34,844 nucleotides of DNA, taken from a virus. Taxonomy: Duplodnaviria; Heunggongvirae; Uroviricota; Caudoviricetes. Each line of letters opens with the position of its first letter. Within the stretch, counting starts at the first letter, position 1. Below the pieces are notes generated by a model that was not told the DNA's origin, did not search any database, and saw only the letters and a program-made list of their open reading frames with translations. Position numbers and translations under genes: made by a program. Positions 1 through 29,185 of the stretch are shown here, piece after piece. The stretch covers positions 1 to 34,844 of the IMG/VR virus record IMGVR_UViG_2579778601_000008. One strand, 5' to 3'.

Positions 1-1011
1 TTATAACGTCACTCCGCCTTTTAGTGGATTCAGAGCGACGGCATTTTGCAGATAGTCAGGCGCAAGGTGCGCATAGGCCATCGTCTGCTGAATGCTCGCA
101 TGTCCCAGAATCTGTTGCAGTGCGATTATATTGCCCCCGTTCATCATGAAATGGCTTGCGAATGTATGCCGCAGGATGTGGGTTGCCTGATTGGGTGGTA
201 TATCAGGTTTCACTCTGCGTAAAATCCCGCAAAATTTCTCATAATCAACTTTGAATAATTTGGCGCTGGCCTCCTCTTTAACTTTTTTCTCCAGTTCCTC
301 AGAAATCGGCACGGTTCGCTTTTTACCGTTTTTGGTTTTCAGGAAGGTAACCCTGCAATTTGTAATCTGTGCTGGTTTTAGCGTGGCAACTTCCGTCCAT
401 CTTCCTCCAGTGCTCAGACATAAAAGCGCGACAAGTAAGTCATCACCAGCCAAAACATTTAACAGTTTTTCGATTTCTGCTTTTTCCAGGAACGTCATTT
501 CAGGGTTGGCCTCCGCCAGTGGCGGCAGTCCGTGAATTGGGTGTTGCCCGGAAAATTCATCCAATTGAATTAATTTTGTGAACATGCCGGATAATCTGTA
601 CATGTCACGGTTTATCGTTGCGGCACTGATACCATCACGTAGTCGCATGGAACGATAATCCATCAAAGCCCTTTTGCTCATCCTGCTCACTGGTATATCA
701 CCTATGCCGCTGATGGTTTTGAGTAGATGATTAAACTCTTTTGTTCCATGCTCGTGGTTTTGCCCGTGATATTTCCACCAGATGTCCAGCAACTCACTCA
801 AAGTCCGGCGGTCTGCTCGCTGGCCTCCCCATTCTTTCTGACTGGCATTGGCGATTGTGTATCGCTCAAATGCTAGTGCTTCAGCTTTTCTTTCGAATTT
901 CCTGCGGATGCGTTTTCCGTCGCGACCGCGAGGTCTAATGTCCACTTCATAGCGACCATCATCGAGCTTCTTAATTGCCATAAGAAAGCCCTCCGGCGCT
1001 GTATTCACCAT
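1..1011 (-). CDS. int: Phage integrase, tyrosine recombinase (P2 Int-like)
   Basis: 336-aa ORF; C-terminal catalytic region ...HILRHTFASHFMMNGGNIIALQQILGHASIQQTMAYAHL... typical of tyrosine recombinases; sits beside the C repressor as in P2. Stop codon is at window positions 1-3, so the gene is complete. Confidence 0.92.
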   Translation of the reverse strand: MVNTAPEGFLMAIKKLDDGRYEVDIRPRGRDGKRIRRKFERKAEALAFERYTIANASQKEWGGQRADRRTLSELLDIWWKYHGQNHEHGTKEFNHLLKTISGIGDIPVSRMSKRALMDYRSMRLRDGISAATINRDMYRLSGMFTKLIQLDEFSGQHPIHGLPPLAEANPEMTFLEKAEIEKLLNVLAGDDLLVALLCLSTGGRWTEVATLKPAQITNCRVTFLKTKNGKKRTVPISEELEKKVKEEASAKLFKVDYEKFCGILRRVKPDIPPNQATHILRHTFASHFMMNGGNIIALQQILGHASIQQTMAYAHLAPDYLQNAVALNPLKGGVTL

Positions 1012-3237: not shown

Positions 3238-3509
3238 GTATTCGTATTGAAATTGGCGAACGTTATGTCGTTACCAGTGACAGCTTTCAGTTTATTCTCC
3301 ACGAGAAAAAGAGAGCGGAAAGCGGTAAAAACGCCGGTCAGGAATGGCTGTCGGTGGTTGGTTATTACCCGAAATTAAGCCAGCTCGTTTCCGGCCTGAT
3401 GCATCACGATATTCTGACCGGAAGCGCAAAGTCTTTTGCTGATTTAAACGTGCAGGTTGAGCAACTCAGCAAGCGTTGTTCAGAGGCTTTTGGCTCATAT
3501 GGCCGTTAA
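3234..3509 (+). CDS. Small early protein (position of P2 orf83)
   Basis: 91-aa ORF; its stop overlaps the start of gene A. Confidence 0.6.
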   Translation: MSIRIEIGERYVVTSDSFQFILHEKKRAESGKNAGQEWLSVVGYYPKLSQLVSGLMHHDILTGSAKSFADLNVQVEQLSKRCSEAFGSYGR

Positions 3510-5775
3510 AGCCTCCGGGCGTTTTGTCCCTCCGTCAGCATTTGCCGCAGGCACCGGTAAGGCGTTTACCGGTGCTTATGCATGGAACGCGCCACGCGAG
3601 GCTGTCGGGCGCGAAAGACCCCTTACACGTGACGAGATGCGTCAGGTGCAAGGGGTTTTATCCACGATTAACCGCCTGCCTTACTTTTTGCGCTCGCTGT
3701 TTACTTCACGCTATGACTACATCCGGCGCAATAAAAGCCCGGTGCACGGGTTTTATTTTCTCACATCCACTTTTCAGCGTCGTTTATGGCCGCGCATTGA
3801 GCGTGTGAATCAGCGCCATGAAATGAACACCGACGCGTCGTTGCTGTTTCTGGCAGAGCGTGGCCATTATGCGCGTCTGCCGGGGATGAATGACAAGGAG
3901 CTGAAAAAGTTTGCCGCCCGTATCTCATCGCAGCTTTTCATGATGTATGAGGAACTCTGCGATGCCTGGGTGGATGCGCATGGCGAAAAAGAATCGCTGT
4001 TTACGGATGAGGCGCAGGCTCACCTCTATGGTCATGTTGCTGGTGCTGCACGTGCTTTCAATATTTCCCCTCTCTACTGGAAAAAATACCGTAAAGGGCA
4101 GATGACCACGAGGCAGGCATATTCTGCCATTGCCCGTCTGTTTAACGATGAGTGGTGGACCCATCAGCTTAAAGGCCAGCGTATGCGCTGGCATGAGGCG
4201 TTACTGATTGCTGTCGGGGAGGTCAATAAAGACCGTTCTCCTTATGCCAGTAAACATGCCATTCGTGATGTGCGTGCACGCCGCCAGGCAAATCTGGAAT
4301 TTCTTAAATCGTGTGATCTCGAAAACAGGGAAACCGGCGAGCGCATCGACCTTATCAGTAAGGTGATGGGCAGTATTTCTAATCCTGAAATTCGCCGGAT
4401 GGAGCTGATGAACACCATTGCCGGTATTGAGCGTTACGCCGCAGCAGAGGGTGATGTGGGGATGTTTATCACGCTGACCGCGCCGTCAAAGTATCACCCG
4501 ACACGTCAGGTCAGAAAAGGCGAAAGTAAAACCGTCCAGCTAAATCACGGCTGGAACGATGAGGCATTTAATCCAAAGGATGCGCAGCGTTATCTCTGCC
4601 GTATCTGGAGCCTGATGCGCACGGCATTCAAGGATAATGATTTACAGGTCTACGGTTTGCGTGTCGTCGAGCCACACCACGACGGAACGCCGCACTGGCA
4701 TATGATGCTTTTTTGTAATCCGCGCCAGCGTAACCAGATTATCGAAATCATGCGTCGCTATGCGCTCAAAGAGGATGGCGACGAAAGAGGAGCCGCGCGA
4801 AACCGTTTTCAGGCAAAACACCTTAACCGGGGCGGTGCTGCGGGGTATATCGCGAAATACATCTCAAAAAACATCGACGGCTATGCACTGGATGGTCAGC
4901 TCGATAACGATACCGGCAGGCCGCTGAAAGACACTGCTGCGGCTGTTACCGCATGGGCGTCAACGTGGCGCATCCCGCAATTTAAAACGGTTGGTCTGCC
5001 GACAATGGGGGCTTACCGTGAACTACGCAAATTGCCGCGCGGCGTCAGCATTGCTGATGAGTTTGACGAGCGCGTCGAGGCTGCACGCGCCGCCGCAGAC
5101 AGTGGTGATTTTGCGTTGTATATCAGCGCGCAGGGTGGGGCAAATGTCCCGCGCGATTGTCAGACTGTCAGGGTCGCCCGTAGCCCGTCGGATGACGTTA
5201 ACGAGTACGAGGAAGAGGTCGAGAGGGTGGTCGGCATTTACGCGCCGCATCTCGGCGCGCGTCATATTCATATCACCAGAACGACGGACTGGCGCATTGT
5301 GCCGAAAGTTCCGGTCGTTGAGCCTTTGACTTTAAAAAGCGGCATCGCCGCGCCTCGGAGTCCTGTCAATAACTGTGGAAAGCTCACCGGTGGTGATACT
5401 TCGTTACCGGCTCCCACACCTTCTGAGCACGCCGCAGCAGTGCTTAATCTGGTTGATGACGATGTTATCGAATGGAATGACCCGGAGGTCGTGAGGGCGC
5501 TCAGGGGCGCATTAAAACACGACCGGAGAACGCCAAACCGTCAGCAAAGAAACGGAAGCCCGTTAAAACCGCATGAAATTGCACCATCGGCCAGACTGAC
5601 CCGGTCGGAACGATTGCAAATTACCCGTATCCGCGTTGATCTCGCTCAGAACGGTATCAGGCCGCAACGATGGGAGCTTGAGGCGCTGGCGCGTGGCGCG
5701 ACCGTAAATTATGACGGGAAACCTTTCACTTATCAGGTCGCTGATGATTGGCCGGGATTTTTGTTACCCATTTGA
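3499..5775 (+). CDS. A: Replication initiation protein A (rolling-circle nicking endonuclease)
   Basis: Start chosen at internal ATG 3499 (MAVKASGRFVPP...), which matches the P2 gpA N-terminus as I recall it; ~758 aa; follows B and the small orfs. Confidence 0.9.
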   Translation: MAVKASGRFVPPSAFAAGTGKAFTGAYAWNAPREAVGRERPLTRDEMRQVQGVLSTINRLPYFLRSLFTSRYDYIRRNKSPVHGFYFLTSTFQRRLWPRIERVNQRHEMNTDASLLFLAERGHYARLPGMNDKELKKFAARISSQLFMMYEELCDAWVDAHGEKESLFTDEAQAHLYGHVAGAARAFNISPLYWKKYRKGQMTTRQAYSAIARLFNDEWWTHQLKGQRMRWHEALLIAVGEVNKDRSPYASKHAIRDVRARRQANLEFLKSCDLENRETGERIDLISKVMGSISNPEIRRMELMNTIAGIERYAAAEGDVGMFITLTAPSKYHPTRQVRKGESKTVQLNHGWNDEAFNPKDAQRYLCRIWSLMRTAFKDNDLQVYGLRVVEPHHDGTPHWHMMLFCNPRQRNQIIEIMRRYALKEDGDERGAARNRFQAKHLNRGGAAGYIAKYISKNIDGYALDGQLDNDTGRPLKDTAAAVTAWASTWRIPQFKTVGLPTMGAYRELRKLPRGVSIADEFDERVEAARAAADSGDFALYISAQGGANVPRDCQTVRVARSPSDDVNEYEEEVERVVGIYAPHLGARHIHITRTTDWRIVPKVPVVEPLTLKSGIAAPRSPVNNCGKLTGGDTSLPAPTPSEHAAAVLNLVDDDVIEWNDPEVVRALRGALKHDRRTPNRQQRNGSPLKPHEIAPSARLTRSERLQITRIRVDLAQNGIRPQRWELEALARGATVNYDGKPFTYQVADDWPGFLLPI

Positions 5776-5992
5776 GTAAAAATACAGCGTGATTTTATAT
5801 GTCTTTGAATGGATTATGCGAAGCACCTCTAAGGTAGATGAGGAGCAATAGCGTGTTGAATCAGAAGGCTAAATTGTATTGAATCGTTAGCATGTAATTG
5901 AAGGCAGCTATTTGATTCGAGTCATAAAAGAGCATCTATTTCGGTTAATAAAACCATTGCGAGTGACTTTATGTCGAAGCATAATTCATCTC

Positions 5993-6006
5993 GAGCGAAG
6001 TCTTGC
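5993..6006. repeat. 14-bp direct repeat GAGCGAAGTCTTGC, copy 1 (preceded by GAGTGACT at 5961)
   Basis: Exact 14-mer recurs at 6257-6270; both copies are preceded by GAGTGACT. Confidence 0.8.
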
Positions 6007-6035
6007 TAGTCTTTCATCGGATTGATGACGGGCGC

Positions 6036-6067
6036 AAAAAAACCACCCTGGCAGGTGGTTTTTTTGT
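6036..6067. terminator. Bidirectional intrinsic terminator
   Basis: GC-rich hairpin (AACCACC..GGTGGTT) flanked by A7 upstream and T7 downstream; lies downstream of gene A (+) and of the small minus-strand ORF. Confidence 0.7.
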
Positions 6068-6077
6068 TTGAAGCATA

Positions 6078-6191
6078 CTAAAGAAAAATACTTACATGGA
6101 TATTACTGACGTTTACTGACAAACCACTCGGACTACCATATGGATAGCCAAAGAGGGCCAGAACGAGAATGCAGTAATAGCACTTCTTCAT
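6078..6191 (-). CDS. Candidate small hydrophobic peptide (37 aa), possible type-I-toxin-like or small membrane protein
   Basis: My own translation, not in the supplied ORF track (below its length cutoff): MKKCYYCILVLALFGYPYGSPSGLSVNVSNIHVSIFL. AGGAGG lies 4 nt upstream of the ATG; the stop codon is directly followed by the intrinsic terminator. Confidence 0.35.
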   Translation of the reverse strand: MKKCYYCILVLALFGYPYGSPSGLSVNVSNIHVSIFL

Positions 6192-6256
6192 ATCGCCTCC
6201 TGTAAGCAGAGGGCAATTTCCGCCGATATATGCGCTTCTAAGGCGGAGTGACTATT

Positions 6257-6270
6257 GAGCGAAGTCTTGC
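6257..6270. repeat. 14-bp direct repeat GAGCGAAGTCTTGC, copy 2 (preceded by GAGTGACT at 6246)
   Basis: Exact match to 5993-6006; the two copies bracket the terminator and the 37-codon ORF. Confidence 0.8.
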
Positions 6271-6912
6271 CCTGAAATAATGCTCTGTTTAAACGCAAAG
6301 TGATCTGGCATATCACCGAACAGAGGACCTGAACAACACAACATATAGTATGTCGTTGTTTCTGGTTGCATTTTATGTTGTGTAATACTGGTTTTGCATC
6401 AAGGATGTTTGAGCTTTTTTTGATATAGCTCAAAGTAAAAAGCAGAGACTACGGATGATAAGGTCTTGAAAGCAATGTAAATTTTTTAAAGTTGTGAGTG
6501 GCTAGAAATGCACAGTTTCAATATGGCGGATTTAAACAAGTAATTAAAAATAGCGACATAAATTCCAATAAAATCATTAAGTTGCGTTTTCTGTGGAAAC
6601 TTCGGTGACTCTGAAATTTTCTTTTAGTGTCGCTGAGGTTTAACAACGCGCTGCGCAAGTAGTTAGTGTTTTTTTAACTCAATATTCTGATTTATAAGGT
6701 TTTTTATAAATCGTGGACTGGTTGCGCGTATTCATCTCGTGTTATCAGCAAAGATAAGCTCTATATGCAGAACGGAATGCATATATGATGTCGAAAATGT
6801 TATGGGAAAACGTGGATTAGTGTTATAGTAATGGCTGAAAAACAGCCTTGACATAAAATAACAACTGTGATATGGCTGTGCATACTTAACTTTTTTAACG
6901 TAGGAGGCAACC

Positions 6913-7398
6913 ATGAGCTATGCAGCTAAAAAACTGCTTGACCGCTATTGGGATCGCCGACTACCTGTCGATCCGTTTAAGCTTGCTAAAGCGTGGGGTG
7001 CTCGTGTTGAAGCACTTGAGGAATCGGCTTATAACAACGATGGGTTAAGCGGTCTGGCTGTCATCAAAAAGGGTGTCCATAGGATTTATTTTGATTCTAG
7101 TGAACATTCTAATCGTCAACGTTTTACTGTTGCACACGAGTTAGGTCATCATGTGCTGGGGCATACCCAGGACGGAGAGTACCATCGGGATAATGTCGGG
7201 AATTATTCAACAGGTGCTCGTGATTACCGTGAGGTTGAAGCAAACAAGTTTGCTGCTGAGTTGTTAATGCCTGAGTCTGCTATACGTCAATTGGTATCCA
7301 GAGAAGGTATTGATAGCACTTTGAGATTAGCAAGCATCTTTAATGTATCAGAAGCCGCTATGCATTGGCGCTTAAAGAGCTTAGGAATGGCTTATTAA
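6913..7398 (+). CDS. ImmA/IrrE-family (DUF955-like) zinc metallopeptidase, no attached HTH domain
   Basis: 161-aa ORF with HEXXH motif in ...FTVAHELGHHVLGH...; AGGAGG 6 nt upstream of the ATG; AT-rich upstream region with TTGACA at 6848. Confidence 0.75.
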   Translation: MSYAAKKLLDRYWDRRLPVDPFKLAKAWGARVEALEESAYNNDGLSGLAVIKKGVHRIYFDSSEHSNRQRFTVAHELGHHVLGHTQDGEYHRDNVGNYSTGARDYREVEANKFAAELLMPESAIRQLVSREGIDSTLRLASIFNVSEAAMHWRLKSLGMAY

Positions 7399-7425
7399 TT
7401 AGCCTTTAACTTTTAACCTGTTTAA

Positions 7426-7462
7426 AATCACCTTTACGTTTGTACATGTAAGGGTGATTTTT
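7426..7462 (+). terminator. Hairpin plus T-tract between the peptidase and membrane-protein genes (possible attenuator or partial terminator)
   Basis: Inverted repeat AAATCACCTTT...AAGGGTGATTT followed by TTTTTT running into the ATG at 7465. Confidence 0.4.
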
Positions 7463-7464
7463 TT

Positions 7465-8064
7465 ATGGCTGATATTGATTTATCTGGACAGTCCCCAGAG
7501 CAAGGAACCACTCCTAAGGGCGATTCAGATCCTGATATCCTTATAAGGCGAGATAGACGGGATGGTATAGAGCGTAGAAGTATGCGATTAGTGCTCTCTG
7601 CCGTTGTGCTTTGTTTTGCTTGTACATTTCTATGGCAGGGGCTTAACTTTGCTTTGGCTGTTGGAAATGGCTTGCTGGAAGCGAAAAGCAGTATTGCCGC
7701 AGCGATAACACAAAAAGTAGATACACAAACTTGTGTTTCAGCAGAAAAATGTTCTGCTTTATCTTCGGATCCGAAGATGGCTGATGAGAGGATAACACCA
7801 TCTTCAGACACTAATAAAGTTAGAAAATCTATTTCTGGTTTATCCACCGATTGGTTATCGGCCAGTTCTCTAATAGCTATTGTTGCATTCATCCTTGGTG
7901 TGGGTTTAACTTTGCTTTTGACTCTTCTTAAATCAGCATTTCAACACCCGACAGATAAAGACTTTAGAACAAAGTCGACATCTAATACTATTGAGTTGGC
8001 CACGCCAATCAGTGAATTAATAATTGGTGTTCTGAATATAATTAAAGACAAACTATCTAAGTAA
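7465..8064 (+). CDS. Predicted two-TM membrane protein of unknown function
   Basis: 199-aa ORF; charged N-terminus (RRDRRDGIERR); hydrophobic segments LVLSAVVLCFACTFLWQGLNFALAV and SLIAIVAFILGVGLTLLLTLL; two Cys in the intervening loop; amphipathic C-terminus; co-oriented with the peptidase gene. Confidence 0.6.
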   Translation: MADIDLSGQSPEQGTTPKGDSDPDILIRRDRRDGIERRSMRLVLSAVVLCFACTFLWQGLNFALAVGNGLLEAKSSIAAAITQKVDTQTCVSAEKCSALSSDPKMADERITPSSDTNKVRKSISGLSTDWLSASSLIAIVAFILGVGLTLLLTLLKSAFQHPTDKDFRTKSTSNTIELATPISELIIGVLNIIKDKLSK

Positions 8065-8146
8065 AGCATTAGTTGTGATTTTTTATTGGTTTTAGTGATA
8101 ATACATCTCCAGTACTTATTGTTACTGGAGAGTATTTTTAGTCGTT

Positions 8147-9088
8147 TTATATTTTTAATGTTAGTGAATGATATTCACGAGAGTTCACGTTCGATGTGAT
8201 GTAATCGGGGGCGTTAACACCAAGAATCGCAACGAGTAATCGGCAAATTAAAGCCTGCATTTGTTGTAATATGTCATCTCCATATTGATAATTGTTAATA
8301 GTGGTAAAGCCAAGTGGTTGACCATGAAACATAGCTTCATGAAAGTTTTCATTGCGGATGTTTGTAATGTTTTTTTTGCCTGTAACCCATGATGGTCGTG
8401 GTATTCCATAAGTTTTGCAGATCCACTTCAAGCGCCTGGAGTGATTTAGAGTCTTTTCTGTACACTTGTTCTTTTCTGCCCATGTTAAAGCAAAGCAACT
8501 ATCCAGTGCCATATAAAGATACTGGAATTTTTCGAAGCTAAGGTATTGTGGGTTTTGGGATAAAAATAGTGCATGCACTATTGCTGCTATATTTATTGGT
8601 GCGTGTTTGGTTTTTGTCTCGCTAGACATGTATTTGAGTGCTAATTCTATAACCTCTTTTTCAGAGCACTTGACCAGAATAAAGTCAGTTAATTTGCTGG
8701 GTTTTATTGGGGTTGCGTCTAAAAAACCGGCATCAGTAGTTGTTAATCTTATCCCTTTGAAAAAAGACAGACACCACACAGCAAAATTGAGAGTTTCTAG
8801 TGAAGATGTATTTTTTAATTTTAGTGAGTGTGTTTTGGGTAAGCCAAATACTCGTTGGCTAAAAGGCATTGTGGATATGCCTCCATTGAGGTTATATACT
8901 TCTTGGTTTCCTGGGTATATCCAACCGTTAATAACATTTCTGTGATTGTTTATAAGATTTGTTTTTTCCGCTAGACCGGGTAAAGTAAGTAAAGAAAAAT
9001 CATCAGTTTCAACGTTAACTTCTACTGGATAGTATCCAAACTCAGCTTCAATATCATTGGATTGCTGTTCGTCAACTTTACCTTGCAT
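8147..9088 (-). CDS. Hypothetical 313-aa protein with RNxxxH motif (possible HEPN-type nuclease)
   Basis: Long ORF in a markedly AT-rich stretch, convergent with the two upstream genes; GGAG 6 nt upstream of ATG; motif RNENFH near residue 245; no P-loop or HEXXH seen. Confidence 0.65.
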   Translation of the reverse strand: MQGKVDEQQSNDIEAEFGYYPVEVNVETDDFSLLTLPGLAEKTNLINNHRNVINGWIYPGNQEVYNLNGGISTMPFSQRVFGLPKTHSLKLKNTSSLETLNFAVWCLSFFKGIRLTTTDAGFLDATPIKPSKLTDFILVKCSEKEVIELALKYMSSETKTKHAPINIAAIVHALFLSQNPQYLSFEKFQYLYMALDSCFALTWAEKNKCTEKTLNHSRRLKWICKTYGIPRPSWVTGKKNITNIRNENFHEAMFHGQPLGFTTINNYQYGDDILQQMQALICRLLVAILGVNAPDYITSNVNSREYHSLTLKI

Positions 9089-9326
9089 ACATTGCTCCGG
9101 TCAAAAATAGGCTCGATAATTCTCGTAAGCCTATCATGTTCGCAAAGTATCCATACCTGTGGATTTTGTAAATTTAAGTTGATTTGTCATTAAATAAGCC
9201 GTTGCATGCAACAAGTGAATGTTTTTGCATGCGTCGGGGATGTCCGTTCAGGCTGCGTGCGGTCAGGACTGGTGCGGATCCATAGTATCTATGCAACTGC
9301 ATTAAAACCGCCCCATGAAGCGGGCG

Positions 9327-9345
9327 GGCGAGGCGGGGAAAGCAC
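9327..9345. other. cos (cohesive end site) of P2-type phage
   Basis: GGCGAGGCGGGGAAAGCAC matches the 19-nt P2 cohesive end as I recall it; located just upstream of the portal gene Q. Confidence 0.7.
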
Positions 9346-9486
9346 TGCGCGCTGGCGGTGGTGCTGATTTTATTTTTTCAGCGTCTGAGCGCGTCGTGAT
9401 GGCGTTTAGATTGTTAGCCGGGGCGTTGGTGTGTCTGCGGGCTATTTTGTGCGGTGGTGAGCGTGTGAGGGCGTGATGGCGGGTTG

Positions 9487-9510
9487 TAAAAAAGCCGCCC
9501 GCAGGCGGCG
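9487..9510 (-). terminator. Intrinsic terminator downstream of Q (minus strand)
   Basis: Hairpin GCCGCC-CGCA-GGCGGC followed, on the minus strand, by a T6 run immediately after the Q stop. Confidence 0.6.
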
Positions 9511-9514
9511 ATAT

Positions 9515-10549
9515 TCAGCCGTTGTCAGTGTCCAGTGAGTAGTTTTTAAAGCGGATGACCTCCTGACCGAGCCAGCCGTTTATCTCGCGGATCCTGTCCT
9601 GTAGCGGGATAAGCTCATTGCGGACAAAGACCTTTGCCACTTTCTCAATATCACCCAGCGACCCGACGTTCTCCGGCTTGCCGCCCATCAACTGAAAGGG
9701 GATGCGGTGCGCGTCCAGCAGGTCAGCGGCGCTGGCTTTTTTGATATTAAAAAAATCGTCCTTCGTTGCCACTTCACTGAGCGGGATAATTTTGATGCCG
9801 TCGGCTTTCCCCTGTGGGGCATAGAGAAACAGATTTTTAAAGTTGTTGCGGCCTTTCGACTTCACCATGTTTTCGCGGAGCATTTCGATATCGTTGCGAT
9901 CCTGCACGGCATCGGTGACGTACATGATGTATCCGGCATGAGCACCGTTTTCGTAATACTTGCGGCGGAACAGCGTGGCTGATTCATTCAGCCAGGCAGA
10001 GTTAAGGGCGCTGAGATATTCCGGCAGGCCGTACAGCTCCTGATTAATATCCGGCTCCAGCAGGTGAAACACGGAACCGGGCGCGAAGGCTGTCGGTTCG
10101 TTGAAGGACGGCACCCACCAGTAAACATCCTCCTCCACGCCACGGCGGGTATATTTTGCCGGTGAGGTTTCCAGTCTGATGACCTTACCGGTGGTGCTGT
10201 AACGCTTTTCCAGAAACGCATTACCGAACACCAGAAAATCCAGCACAAAGCGGCTGAAATCCTGCTGGGACAGCCACGGATGCGGGATAAATGTCGAGGC
10301 CAGAATATTACGTTTGACGTAAATCGGTGAGCTGTGATGCACGGCAGCACGCAGGCTTTTTGCCAGACCAGTAAAGCTGACCGGTGGTTCATACCATCTG
10401 CCGTTACTGATGCACTCGACGTAATCCAGAATGTCACGGCGGTCGAGTACCGGCACCGGCTCACCAAAGGTGAATGCTTCCATTTTCGGGGCGCTGGCGG
10501 TCATTTTTTTTGCCGCAGGTTGCTGTGTTTTCCCTTTTTTCTTGCTCAT
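9515..10549 (-). CDS. Q: Portal protein (capsid portal vertex)
   Basis: 344-aa ORF; length and sequence agree with P2 gpQ as I recall it; start ATG overlaps the P stop (ATGA). Confidence 0.92.
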   Translation of the reverse strand: MSKKKGKTQQPAAKKMTASAPKMEAFTFGEPVPVLDRRDILDYVECISNGRWYEPPVSFTGLAKSLRAAVHHSSPIYVKRNILASTFIPHPWLSQQDFSRFVLDFLVFGNAFLEKRYSTTGKVIRLETSPAKYTRRGVEEDVYWWVPSFNEPTAFAPGSVFHLLEPDINQELYGLPEYLSALNSAWLNESATLFRRKYYENGAHAGYIMYVTDAVQDRNDIEMLRENMVKSKGRNNFKNLFLYAPQGKADGIKIIPLSEVATKDDFFNIKKASAADLLDAHRIPFQLMGGKPENVGSLGDIEKVAKVFVRNELIPLQDRIREINGWLGQEVIRFKNYSLDTDNG

Positions 10550-26882: not shown

Positions 26883-27632
26883 TCACTGATCTCCTTCGGT
26901 CAACGGAGATTGTATTTTCCGCATTGATTCTCCTTTAAGTTCGATCTTGATACTGCCATGAACCAGTCGATCTAGGATGGCATCCGCATGTGTGGAGTCT
27001 CCGATCATTTTGTACCAGTTTTCCACCGGCAACTGGCTCACTACGATGATTGAGCCTCGTTGGTACATCAGATCCACTATTTCCAGCAGGTCGCTACGCT
27101 GTTCTGATGAGAGAGGTTCCAGCCCCCAGTCATCCAGAAGCAGCAGATCGCTATTATTCAGCCTGGTCAAAAGTTTGCTGTATCTTCCATCAGCATGCCC
27201 CTGATAGCACTGTTCCATCAGCGCTTTAAGGCGATAATAGTAGACCTTGTATCCCTGTCGGCAGGCATTATGACCAAGTGCACATGCCAGGAACGTTTTA
27301 CCGCTGCCGGTGGCCCCGGTCAGTAAAATATTTTGTTTCAGGGTTAACCAGTTTCCCTGACTGAGTGAACGGATGAGGGCCCTGTCCAGCCCTCTATTGT
27401 TACGATAATCCAGCTTTGATAACTCAGCATTAAGTCTGAACCGTGCATGTTTGATCAGACGCTCTGCCTTCCTGTTTTCACGGCAGGTTAGTTCTTCTGC
27501 TGTCAGTAATGACAGGCGTTCTTCGAAGCCCAGCTCCTGGTATGTGCCCGGTTGAGCAAGTTGCTTTTTAAGCGCATCACGGAAGCCGGTGAGTTTAAGT
27601 GCGGTCAGTTGTTCGTAAAGATGATTCATCAT
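26883..27632 (-). CDS. istB: IS21-family helper ATPase IstB
   Basis: 249-aa ORF with Walker A (GATGSGKT) and Walker B (LLLLDDWG) motifs, typical of IstB. Confidence 0.9.
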   Translation of the reverse strand: MMNHLYEQLTALKLTGFRDALKKQLAQPGTYQELGFEERLSLLTAEELTCRENRKAERLIKHARFRLNAELSKLDYRNNRGLDRALIRSLSQGNWLTLKQNILLTGATGSGKTFLACALGHNACRQGYKVYYYRLKALMEQCYQGHADGRYSKLLTRLNNSDLLLLDDWGLEPLSSEQRSDLLEIVDLMYQRGSIIVVSQLPVENWYKMIGDSTHADAILDRLVHGSIKIELKGESMRKIQSPLTEGDQ

Positions 27633-27643
27633 TGGATCCCGTA

Positions 27644-29185
27644 TCAGTGGTAATACTCACTGCCGCGTACGTTTTCGTGTTCCATCGTGGATAACAGATC
27701 TGGTTTTGGATCCTGAACAGGTTGTTTATCCAGACCTTTTTCCAGGATCGATTTAATACCTGACAGACGCCATACCTTTGTTTTCAGAGCTCTTGCACAT
27801 GCTGCATTAAGTCTGGCTTTACTGTATTTTTTATGAAGGTTCAGGAGTCCAAGGCAGAAGCGATAGCTTTGTTCCGGATGTGGACGAGAGTTCAGTATAT
27901 GAAGCACATAACTATGAGTTTCACTGCCTATGTGCCCCGCCCATTCCAGAAGACGCTCTGGCGTCCAGGTGGCATGCTGTCGATGAGCTTCAGGCATGTG
28001 CTCGTTGCGGGTACTGTAGCCATAAGTACGCTTGCGCGGGTGCACAGCAACCTCCTGCCCCTGATTGAAGAGTCTTACCAGTTCTCCGGAGATCCATGCT
28101 TCCAGTTGCTGGCCTAACAGCGAACATGGAACCGAGTAGTAATGTTTGTCGATTTCCACGTGGTAATCGGCATGAACTCTGACTTTCTTCACCAGGGTGT
28201 AACTGTAACTGGCTTCAGGAAGAGGCTTCAGTGCGGGTTTATCAAGCTGGATGAAGAGTTCTGCACGTGAATAACCCAACTTCTGCATTATTTTGTTATT
28301 CAGTCTTTCCAGCAACTCCCGAATGCGCTGATTAAGCGATGCAAGGCTGTAGAAGATCTCATGCCTGATTCGGGCCATGATCCAGCGTTCAACAACCTGA
28401 ACGCCAACTTCAGCTTTGGCTTTATCTTTCGGTTTACGTGGCCGCGCAGGCAAAACTGCGACATTATAATGCTCAAGCATCTGCTGGTAGGTAGGGTTAA
28501 CGTCAGGATCATACTTACATGCCCTGGATGTGGCGCTTTTCAGATTGTCCGGAACAACAAGTTCAGGAACGCCACCCAACCACTGGAAGCAGCGAACATG
28601 ACTCATCACCCAGTCTTCAAGCTGCTGAGACCAGGTGGCCTCTGCCCATGTGTAACTTGATGCCCCGAGAACAGCTACGATGACCTGAGCAGTTCTTATT
28701 TCTCCGGTCTCAGGGTCGGTAACGCCAACGGTAGGTCCACAGTAATCAACGAAAAGTTTTTCGCCAGCTTTATGTACCTGACGCATTGATGGTGAAGTGG
28801 TTTTGAGCCATTCACGGTACATCCGGCAGTAATGGTTATAGCTGTAAAAACCGCCTGGATTACGCTCACAGTATTCTTCCCAGAGTAGCTGCAGCGTCAC
28901 GCATTTATTACGCAGTTCCCGGTGTACTGTAGCCCAGTCAGGCAGAGAGTGCTTCTTCATCTTAACCTGGGTCTGAAGGAACGCATGTTTTAGTTTTGTA
29001 TCATCCCATCCTGTAGGTAAGGGCCACTGCTTTATGCCAAGTTGAGCCGCCCGATTAGCATATCTGGATACAACGGAAGGGGAGATTGCAAGACTACGAC
29101 CAATTTGTCGATGGCTGAGTCCAACACCGTATTTAAGCCTAAGAATTTCTTTAAGTTTTCTCATAGAAATTGGAACTGTTGGCAT
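27644..29185 (-). CDS. istA: IS21-family transposase IstA
   Basis: 513-aa ORF with an N-terminal HTH and DDE-type integrase core, immediately upstream of istB. Confidence 0.9.
   Translation of the reverse strand: MPTVPISMRKLKEILRLKYGVGLSHRQIGRSLAISPSVVSRYANRAAQLGIKQWPLPTGWDDTKLKHAFLQTQVKMKKHSLPDWATVHRELRNKCVTLQLLWEEYCERNPGGFYSYNHYCRMYREWLKTTSPSMRQVHKAGEKLFVDYCGPTVGVTDPETGEIRTAQVIVAVLGASSYTWAEATWSQQLEDWVMSHVRCFQWLGGVPELVVPDNLKSATSRACKYDPDVNPTYQQMLEHYNVAVLPARPRKPKDKAKAEVGVQVVERWIMARIRHEIFYSLASLNQRIRELLERLNNKIMQKLGYSRAELFIQLDKPALKPLPEASYSYTLVKKVRVHADYHVEIDKHYYSVPCSLLGQQLEAWISGELVRLFNQGQEVAVHPRKRTYGYSTRNEHMPEAHRQHATWTPERLLEWAGHIGSETHSYVLHILNSRPHPEQSYRFCLGLLNLHKKYSKARLNAACARALKTKVWRLSGIKSILEKGLDKQPVQDPKPDLLSTMEHENVRGSEYYH

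Follow-up and report, generated by a model that had tools for sequence, protein, structure and literature searches.

A stand-alone ImmA/IrrE-type peptidase and a two-helix membrane protein form a co-inherited gene pair in the cargo hotspot of a P2-like prophage

The window analysed here, a stretch of 34,844 nucleotides (IMG/VR record IMGVR_UViG_2579778601_000008), corresponds to an E. coli prophage of the P2-like (Peduovirus) type; two co-oriented genes at 6913–8064, in the variable interval that separates its genes gpA and Q, constitute a real co-inherited two-gene module. Gene 1 encodes a stand-alone peptidase of the ImmA/IrrE family and gene 2 a protein with two transmembrane (TM) segments. 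We propose, tentatively and with somewhat less than even confidence, that the pair is a self-contained mobile conflict module in which a cytosolic zinc peptidase of ImmA/IrrE type would cleave a cytoplasmic tail of a scarce two-TM effector and thereby control it.

The cassette is a known, unvalidated candidate: a variant from E. coli TA280 has already been cloned as pFR104, 'Peptidase + TM' (Rousset et al. 2022, Cell Host Microbe, PMC9122126). An earlier reading of this stretch made without database searches (the sequence-only reading) could match the pair to no described system, and was wrong on this point. To the existing record we add the breadth of the family across Proteobacteria, a motif map of the membrane partner, a corrected start for gene 2, and a predicted double lock on gene 2 formed by a terminator and a buried Shine-Dalgarno (SD) sequence.

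Results

A peptidase and a membrane protein inherited together

The genes and signals of the cassette are the following.

6848–6876, plus strand: candidate sigma-70 promoter, with −35 element TTGACA at 6848–6853, a 17-nt spacer and a TG-extended weak −10 element TATGGC at 6871–6876
6901–6906, plus strand: strong SD sequence AGGAGG of gene 1, 6 nt before the peptidase ATG
6913–7398, plus strand: gene 1, stand-alone Peptidase_M78 (ImmA/IrrE family) of 161 aa; PF06114; RefSeq WP_000119270.1
7424–7464, plus strand: intercistronic terminator-like hairpin, with a 16-bp stem at 7424–7461 and a U7 run at 7458–7464
7465–8064, plus strand: gene 2, N-in/C-in two-TM protein of 199 aa, as judged from hydropathy, charge, AlphaFold2 (AF2) and family alignments

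The two genes travel together wherever we sampled them. In each of the 29 loci reached by way of the membrane protein, the peptidase gene lies directly upstream; among these loci are IMG/VR P2-like contigs, a chromosomal island of Serratia, an Enterobacter plasmid and a Vibrio integrative element. Looked up from the other side, six of six peptidases of 44–51% identity have a small two-TM protein immediately downstream (130–240 aa, two TM helices, an N-terminal tail and a C-terminal amphipathic helix). These six span gamma-, beta- and delta-proteobacteria: an Aeromonas Mu-like prophage, where the pair has mor on one side and the lysis genes on the other; a P. aeruginosa prophage, in which a cI-like S24 repressor gene immediately precedes it; a prophage of Klebsiella, where it lies at the end, and one of Alcaligenes; and Cupriavidus and Maridesulfovibrio. 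The pairing proposed by the sequence-only reading is thus found again in other genomes, at 29/29 and 6/6 sampled loci. Peptidase and membrane protein identities drop in parallel (88/57, 63/44, 51/34 and 47/29%), and therefore the pair diverges as a unit, the membrane protein faster.

A word-indexed search returned 52 relatives of the membrane protein, in Enterobacterales and Vibrio, and a full profile search against 1.84 billion representatives only 58 clusters; when species-representative genomes were scanned with the alignment of the membrane protein, 55 pattern matches came up, none of them confirmed. For the peptidase, relatives at E≤1e-10 number 283 at cluster level, almost all of them 150–170 aa long. 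Of 5,426 complete E. coli genomes, 50 carry the two-gene core, every copy chromosomal, and 46 contain DNA identical to 5700–9600 of the window. One E. coli genome (NZ_CP182145.1) carries an IS4-like element, ISVsa5, in the hotspot outside the two-gene core, which stays 100% identical.

In prophages the pair occupies cargo ('moron') positions. Outside prophages its neighbours are as follows.

Serratia, locus L004, 8463–10246: a bona fide RosmerTA system (RmrT 8.5e-59; RmrA 2.7e-145, full length), 1.8 kb from the pair
Enterobacter plasmid, locus L006, 2948–4316 and 8826–12588: Zeta-toxin, HNH and 1,213-aa YobI-ATPase (Tmn-like) genes, among which the pair lies
Cupriavidus, locus L033, 4373–6004: a dCTP-deaminase defence gene (1.2e-173), adjoining the pair

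This guilt by association supports a role in conflict, without proving it. The location in a defence hotspot claimed by the sequence-only reading holds for the P2 gpA–gpQ interval, and the neighbourhoods of the pair outside prophages amount to defence islands. We also considered that the peptidase might act on the P2 C repressor in prophage induction; this appears unlikely, as the pair is also found on a plasmid and on prophage-free chromosomal islands.

Gene 1 encodes a minimal peptidase with an intact active site

The product of gene 1, named 'ImmA/IrrE family metallo-endopeptidase' in RefSeq, matches Peptidase_M78 at 75.6 bits (gathering cut-off 22; E=3.8e-21) over an open reading frame (ORF) of exactly 6913–7398; its recognition from the sequence alone as a 161-aa HEXXH peptidase of ImmA/IrrE size, by the motif AHELGHHVLGH, was correct. 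H75, E76, H79 and, as the distal ligand, E107 do not vary across 33 homologues, and the gene is under purifying selection, with proportions of nonsynonymous differences (pN) of 0.07–0.09 vs proportions of synonymous differences (pS) of 0.6–0.76. The protein contains no hydrophobic segment and no cysteine, and therefore has no CapP-type cysteine switch.

The AF2 model of the peptidase, with a predicted local distance difference test score (pLDDT) of 86, spans the catalytic domain and a helix-turn-helix (HTH)-like linker domain. Among solved proteins, those nearest in sequence and in structure are CapP (7t5t) and PprI/IrrE (8sln, 8slm, 3dte/3dti); a Foldseek search of the PDB gave E=1.3e-5 for CapP 7t5t and ~2e-5 for PprI/IrrE (probability 1.00 each), and the TM-score against CapP 7t5t and PprI/IrrE 8sln/3dti is 0.6 by query length and 0.4 by target length. 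The HTH-like linker domain of CapP/IrrE has its counterpart in the last ~30 residues, and the chain ends at residue 161, with neither an N-terminal HTH of the xenobiotic response element (XRE) type nor a C-terminal GAF domain; in CapP/IrrE the GAF domain accounts for the remaining ~100 residues. The earlier statement that the protein has no HTH module is therefore right for the N-terminal XRE HTH but not for the C-terminal linker. The same reading had called the enzyme a sensor protease, for which we find no support: the GAF domain, the only known sensor domain of the closest structural relatives, has been lost. As judged from these features, the peptidase looks active, yet without a known regulatory domain.

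Matches to models of defence systems are confined to the peptidase domain. The top PADLOC model is capP (1e-30), covering only 8–153 of its 242 positions; 14 RmrA profiles match (E down to 6e-17) only over their C-terminal peptidase part, e.g. 146–267 of 363; and PD-Lambda-2_B (1.3e-6) and PDC-M69B (2.6e-11) match weakly. No XRE/HTH gene adjoins the pair among the window ORFs, downstream or within 1.1 kb upstream, as had been noted for XRE-type repressors from the sequence alone, and neither the annotation of the window nor PADLOC places cyclic-oligonucleotide-based antiphage signalling (CBASS) or similar genes in the hotspot.

A variant of gene 1 is recorded in Salmonella Infantis CP148870.1 (locus L035, 3001–3354; ~7156–7160 in the window), where a 1-bp deletion in a G-run just after the HEXXH motif cuts the peptidase to 117 aa, with loss of E107; the hairpin, the 199-aa membrane gene and the convergent downstream gene ORF313 are intact. 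The frameshift may be a sequencing error in the homopolymer; otherwise it is a natural knockout of the peptidase, tolerated by the cell.

Gene 2 encodes a two-TM protein with conserved cytoplasmic tails

Two TM helices in a co-oriented 199-aa protein, claimed from the sequence alone, are confirmed by hydropathy and by a hairpin in the AF2 model. Kyte-Doolittle analysis gives hydrophobic segments at ~41–66 (TM1) and ~129–155 (TM2), an N-in/C-in topology is implied by Arg/Lys clusters towards both termini, and AF2 places helices at 23–88, 117–159 and 175–198, i.e. a long helical hairpin followed by a C-terminal helix. The resulting layout is a disordered cytoplasmic N-tail (1–40), TM1, a periplasmic loop (~67–128), TM2 and a cytoplasmic C-tail. 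Searches of Pfam, PADLOC (E≤1) and NCBIfam returned no match for the protein; its only match is phrog_8096, of unknown function.

What is conserved is the helical hairpin, TM2 most of all, together with short linear motifs of the two cytoplasmic tails. The N-tail of the window protein carries a DLSG motif and then a juxtamembrane ERRxMR. Across the family the N-tail motif reads D-[LFY]-[SA]-x-[GP] and is present in at least 38 of the 86 members with an annotated tail, vs 2.5 expected from shuffled tails; this expression misses the DLSGQ form of the window protein, and the count is therefore a lower bound. The juxtamembrane motif of the family is E-[RK]-R-x-M-R. TM2 (AFILGVGLTLLLTLLK in the window; AFILGVGLTLxLTLLK in the family) is Gly-rich and invariant or nearly so, with pN 0–0.07 vs pS 0.55–0.85. 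The C-tail motif [AT]-[TGS]-P-[LIV]-S-[EKQ]-L is found in 73 of 86 members and leads into a Lys-rich amphipathic helix, which in the window protein is the conserved ATP(L/I)SEL helix. The periplasmic loop is not conserved and is predicted to be disordered, ranging from a few residues (Pseudomonas, Maridesulfovibrio) to ~110 (Vibrio); its two cysteines, picked out by the sequence-only reading, are indeed present in the window protein, but they are restricted to the Enterobacterales members and are not a family-wide feature.

The whole protein is under purifying selection (pN 0.24–0.31 vs pS 0.7–0.8). Positive selection on the loop or the N-tail, as a sign of an arms race, is unsupported: pN is below pS throughout, and synonymous sites are saturated. 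The first 40 codons, which encode the N-tail, have pN 0.20–0.22 vs pS 0.66–0.87 and are thus under purifying selection, and therefore the long ORF is the real one. The start of the 199–207-aa, two-TM protein is further supported by a conserved AUG that abuts the intercistronic hairpin and by in-frame indels. Public entries begin instead at an internal Met and describe a protein of 159 aa with '1 TM', both in P2DC1 (OU784750.1; locus L002, 3409–3888) and for protein 2 of pFR104.

The conserved surface is directed to the cytoplasm and to the core of the membrane rather than to the periplasm, which argues against a periplasmic sensor. As a pattern of residues, this conservation favours an oligomerising membrane element whose cytoplasmic tails would be recognised by a cytosolic partner.

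The same tails also bear on an alternative that we regard as quite unlikely, namely that the pair is a membrane-tethered regulatory protease: the two-TM protein would anchor the peptidase through its tail motifs and gate access to an external substrate, which could be a protein of an incoming phage, or a competing element's XRE/CI-type repressor, in an ImmA/ImmR-like arrangement supplied in trans. The short conserved linear motifs of the tails are typical of docking sites, the characterised close relatives of the peptidase cleave DNA-binding repressors, the Pseudomonas pair stands directly after a repressor gene of the cI-like S24 type, and the cassette always resides on elements that compete with other phages. 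However, no candidate substrate gene is conserved beside the pair, whose contexts are unrelated; the Gly-rich TM2 is the most conserved element, more so than a passive anchor needs; and the tight predicted repression of gene 2 would be odd for a harmless anchor.

Expression signals predict abundant peptidase and little membrane protein

The signals in front of the two genes differ sharply. Gene 1 has a strong SD block (AACGTAGGAGGCAACCATG), identical in the Serratia and Enterobacter loci, and a candidate promoter that was read by eye and is conserved in the divergent P2DC1 variant; the consensus scan missed this promoter because its −10 element lacks the final T. Gene 2 is preceded by the intercistronic hairpin, whose 3' arm holds the only SD-like sequence of the gene, AAGGGUGA, and whose U7 run ends at the base immediately before the gene 2 ATG. 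The hairpin has a folding energy of −20.9 kcal/mol (z=−4.6), and none of 200 shuffled sequences was equally stable.

This layout of hairpin, U-run and AUG recurs in all 11 distinct gamma-proteobacterial sequences that were folded, and by eye in locus L031. Four unrelated stems share it (TCACC.., GCCCUC.., AAAGCCACCU.. and AAAGCCACCC..); compensatory changes occur within the enterobacterial stem, and the Vibrio, Aeromonas and Klebsiella-type loci have wholly different stems. In the Pseudomonas, beta- and delta-proteobacterial versions the two genes are instead closely spaced (adjacent, overlapping or at most 13 nt apart).

Read from the sequence, most transcripts should stop just 5' of gene 2, and the mRNA that reads through should be poorly translated; in gamma-proteobacteria this predicts abundant peptidase and very little membrane protein. 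A predicted terminator at the start codon combined with a buried SD is a way in which a dangerous gene would be expected to be kept near-silent, and a neat one.

The predicted ratio of the two products is also what a toxin-antitoxin or addiction module would call for, in which a constitutively toxic membrane protein is destroyed by the abundant peptidase acting as an enzymatic antitoxin, the module thereby stabilising its carrier element; it could fire when peptidase supply or activity falls, for example through host shut-off or a phage inhibitor. We consider this explanation unlikely, although several observations agree with it. Gene order and predicted expression ratio (a strong vs a sequestered SD) are like those of antitoxin-first type II operons, a minimal sensorless peptidase suits a constitutive enzyme, the membrane gene never occurs without the peptidase in the sampled loci, the module is carried on plasmids and islands, and M78 domains are known from RmrA, the antitoxin of RosmerTA, and from the 'spr1629 family repressor/antitoxin' of NCBIfam. 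Against these stand the intact membrane gene behind the frameshifted peptidase of CP148870.1, a weak point as it is perhaps a sequencing error; a catalytic, presumably stable antitoxin, which departs from the usual labile-antitoxin logic; and the HTH domain of the known M78 antitoxins, which is missing here.

A variant of the cassette in a published phage panel

The pFR104 construct comprises the whole gpA–gpQ interval under its native promoter in a pSC101 vector, and was challenged in MG1655 with eight coliphages (PMC9122126). Only three of eight extra P2 systems protected against this eight-phage panel, and the three P2 systems that the text names as active do not include pFR104 (PMC9122126). 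The exact peptidase allele of the window, WP_000119270, fills 23 rows of the hotspot Table S5A of the same study (PMC9122126). The cloning primers of pFR104 map to 5756–5775 and 9515–9534 of the window, and the cloned genes, the same two in the same order, are 88% (peptidase) and 55–57% (membrane protein) identical to those described here; the TA280 peptidase is identical to that of P2DC1. The window differs from pFR104 in carrying another allele of the fast-evolving membrane protein and the convergent ORF313. A literature search by accession, and for defence by an M78 peptidase with a membrane protein, found nothing beyond Rousset et al. 2022, and peptidases go unmentioned in the main text of a 2026 preprint on P2/P4 hotspots. 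Since it has already been catalogued, without protection in the only published test, the cassette is not countable as a new defence system on sequence alone.

Class II holins are two-TM proteins of N-in/C-in topology with a charged C-tail, which the membrane protein resembles, and the pair might on this ground have a non-defence accessory role, as a holin-like lysis-timing or envelope-modifying device or as a lysogenic-conversion factor, without phage exclusion. That no protection against the eight phages was reported agrees with such a role, and so does the position of the Aeromonas and Alcaligenes prophage pairs beside a lysis cassette (endolysin, DUF2514). We nonetheless think it very improbable: the pair is also found in chromosomal defence islands and on a plasmid without lysis genes, and P2-like phages own a complete lysis cassette, their hotspot holding cargo and not core functions.

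The surroundings of the pair in the hotspot

Other features of the window that frame the cassette are listed below.

1–1011, minus strand: integrase
3457–5775: gpA replication endonuclease (Pfam Phage_GPA, E=6e-123)
8106–8131, both strands: bidirectional terminator-like hairpin with a 9-bp stem (consensus scan), closing the cassette between gene 2 and ORF313
8147–9088, minus strand, convergent with gene 2: ORF313, 313 aa, matching phrog_5937 only; context and not part of the module
9515–10549, minus strand: portal gene Q, after which the morphogenesis genes come

The gpA–gpQ interval is a described hotspot for anti-phage cargo (Rousset et al. 2022, PMC9122126). In the window it holds, besides the pair, a 1.1-kb segment 5' of the peptidase gene and ORF313. 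The gpA–Q stretch is also the site of old/tin in P2.

The segment at 5776–6912 was considered as a hidden HTH partner or RNA gene of the module and rejected: it contains no ORF with a credible protein (the largest encodes 81 aa from a TTG start), its Rfam matches are all sub-threshold (RNAI at 27.8 bits vs a threshold of 47), and it occurs in P2-like phages only. It is 87% identical between two P2 lineages and missing from the non-P2 loci that carry the pair, and therefore lies outside the module. A strong terminator-like hairpin is found within it at ~6035–6070 (AAAAAAACCACCCTGGCAGGTGGTTTTTTT); the segment may consist of gene remnants or be a long leader.

ORF313, which has no match in Pfam, PADLOC or NCBIfam, was likewise rejected as a third component. 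A 74%-identical copy occurs without the pair in P2-EC67 (AM157369), adjoining the unrelated ORF226 and ORF73, and most loci with the pair have no ORF313; a homologue of 49% identity is found in locus L027. ORF313 is thus a separate cargo gene of the hotspot, and possibly a single-gene defence candidate in its own right.

In the tail cluster, between E/E' and the tape-measure gene T, an element of the IS21 family occupies 26883–29185 on the minus strand; it encodes IstA (513 aa, rve and Mu-transposase C-terminal domains) and IstB (249 aa, IstB_IS21, E=2e-67). IstB also matches the PADLOC model DrmD at 9e-24, a match that looks spurious. The prophage copy in the window is probably defective.

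Discussion

The mechanism that we favour, in which the peptidase controls the membrane protein by cutting one of its cytoplasmic tails, starts from what the loci display: co-inheritance of the two genes, an intact active site, the lack of a repressor and of a sensor domain, the conservation of the tail motifs and TM2, and the repression signals at gene 2. Substrate, toxicity of the partner, direction of the switch and trigger are then proposed as follows. The membrane protein would be a latent, oligomerising, holin-like membrane-damaging effector, and it, not a repressor, would be the substrate of the peptidase; candidate cut sites are the DLSG motif of the N-tail, the juxtamembrane ...M|R... 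junction and the ATPLSEL helix of the C-tail. Infection would supply a cue to the peptidase or to its substrate; cleavage would turn the effector on, in a pro-toxin logic; and the outcome would be abortive infection or exclusion, benefiting the carrier prophage, plasmid or island. Membrane proteins are common effectors of abortive infection (Rousset et al. 2022, PMC9122126). The hydrophobic|Arg junction M40|R41 of the window protein resembles the F82|R83 site of CapH, and the frameshifted peptidase next to an intact membrane gene in CP148870.1 fits an effector that is harmless until it is processed.

Several points weigh against this mechanism. The AF2 model of the membrane protein has a low-confidence pLDDT of 64, with N-tail, loop and linker disordered, and a fold search of this model against the PDB found no significant match (best E=7.5). 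Arg and Lys residues next to TM1, including the M40|R41 junction, may equally be expected from the positive-inside rule alone, and the CP148870.1 frameshift may be no more than a homopolymer sequencing error. Nor does the peptidase have a recognisable sensor domain by which infection would be detected. Moreover, pFR104 is listed in Table S2B, 'additional tested systems', the validated systems being those of Table S2A (PMC9122126); this limited negative result bears directly on the phage resistance expected by the sequence-only reading, and makes the cassette less novel and a classical defence phenotype less probable. The sequence-only reading of a sensor protease with a membrane effector for abortive infection is thus upheld as far as the true gene pair in a hotspot is concerned, but the phage test gives it no support.

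A bolder proposal, which we find conceivable though doubtful, is that the pair represents an uncharacterised class of conflict system on prophages, plasmids and defence islands of gamma-, beta- and delta-proteobacteria, in which a minimal peptidase has switched its target from a DNA-binding repressor to the cytoplasmic tail of a dedicated two-TM pore-former; in enterobacteria, vibrios and aeromonads the effector would in addition be held by the double lock, with release on infection by proteolysis or read-through, and the published phage panel, a narrow one, would have missed its targets. If the tail-cutting mechanism is true, the ImmA/IrrE/CapP family gains a new class of substrate, the characterised members acting on transcriptional repressors, and a compact (1.2 kb) protease-gated membrane effector is added to the phage-borne conflict systems.

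Besides pFR104, the closest known systems include CapH/CapP, DdrO/IrrE (PprI) and ImmR/ImmA, with which the pair shares the peptidase family and fold, i.e. HEXXH catalytic and HTH-like linker domains. ImmA, IrrE and CapP each cleave a specific partner at a single site (F82|R83 in CapH), and all of these characterised close relatives cleave DNA-binding repressors; by analogy, a single-site cut of one dedicated partner is likely to be the action of the window peptidase as well. The differences are in what surrounds this activity. No HTH repressor gene is adjacent and the conserved partner is a two-TM protein; at 161 aa vs 240–290 aa the peptidase lacks the GAF sensor domain of IrrE and CapP, and also the cysteine switch of CapP; and, unlike in the repressor–protease pairs, whose repressors govern CBASS, an SOS-like regulon or excision genes, there is no regulated downstream operon, the cassette ending at a terminator-like hairpin that is followed by a convergent gene.

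RosmerTA (RmrT/RmrA), reportedly described by Millman et al. in 2022, is like the pair in being a two-gene defence-island module with an M78 peptidase domain. RmrA, however, has ~360–400 aa, as compared with the 161 aa of the window protein, its peptidase being preceded by a fused HTH at the N-terminus; gene 2 matches no RmrT model; and the gene order is reversed, the peptidase coming first here. No partner components of PD-Lambda-2 or PDC-M69 adjoin the pair, gene 2 and ORF313 matching no PADLOC model. Membership in ImmR/ImmA, CapH/CapP, RosmerTA, PD-Lambda-2 and PDC-M69 was accordingly rejected, on missing partners and domains.

Bacterial gasdermins and their proteases offer an analogy only, with no sequence or fold relationship. 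The gasdermin-associated proteases carry large sensor and repeat domains, of which the window peptidase has none; what the tail-cutting mechanism would have in common with them is the logic by which a dedicated protease removes the inhibitory tail of a neighbouring membrane-damaging protein.

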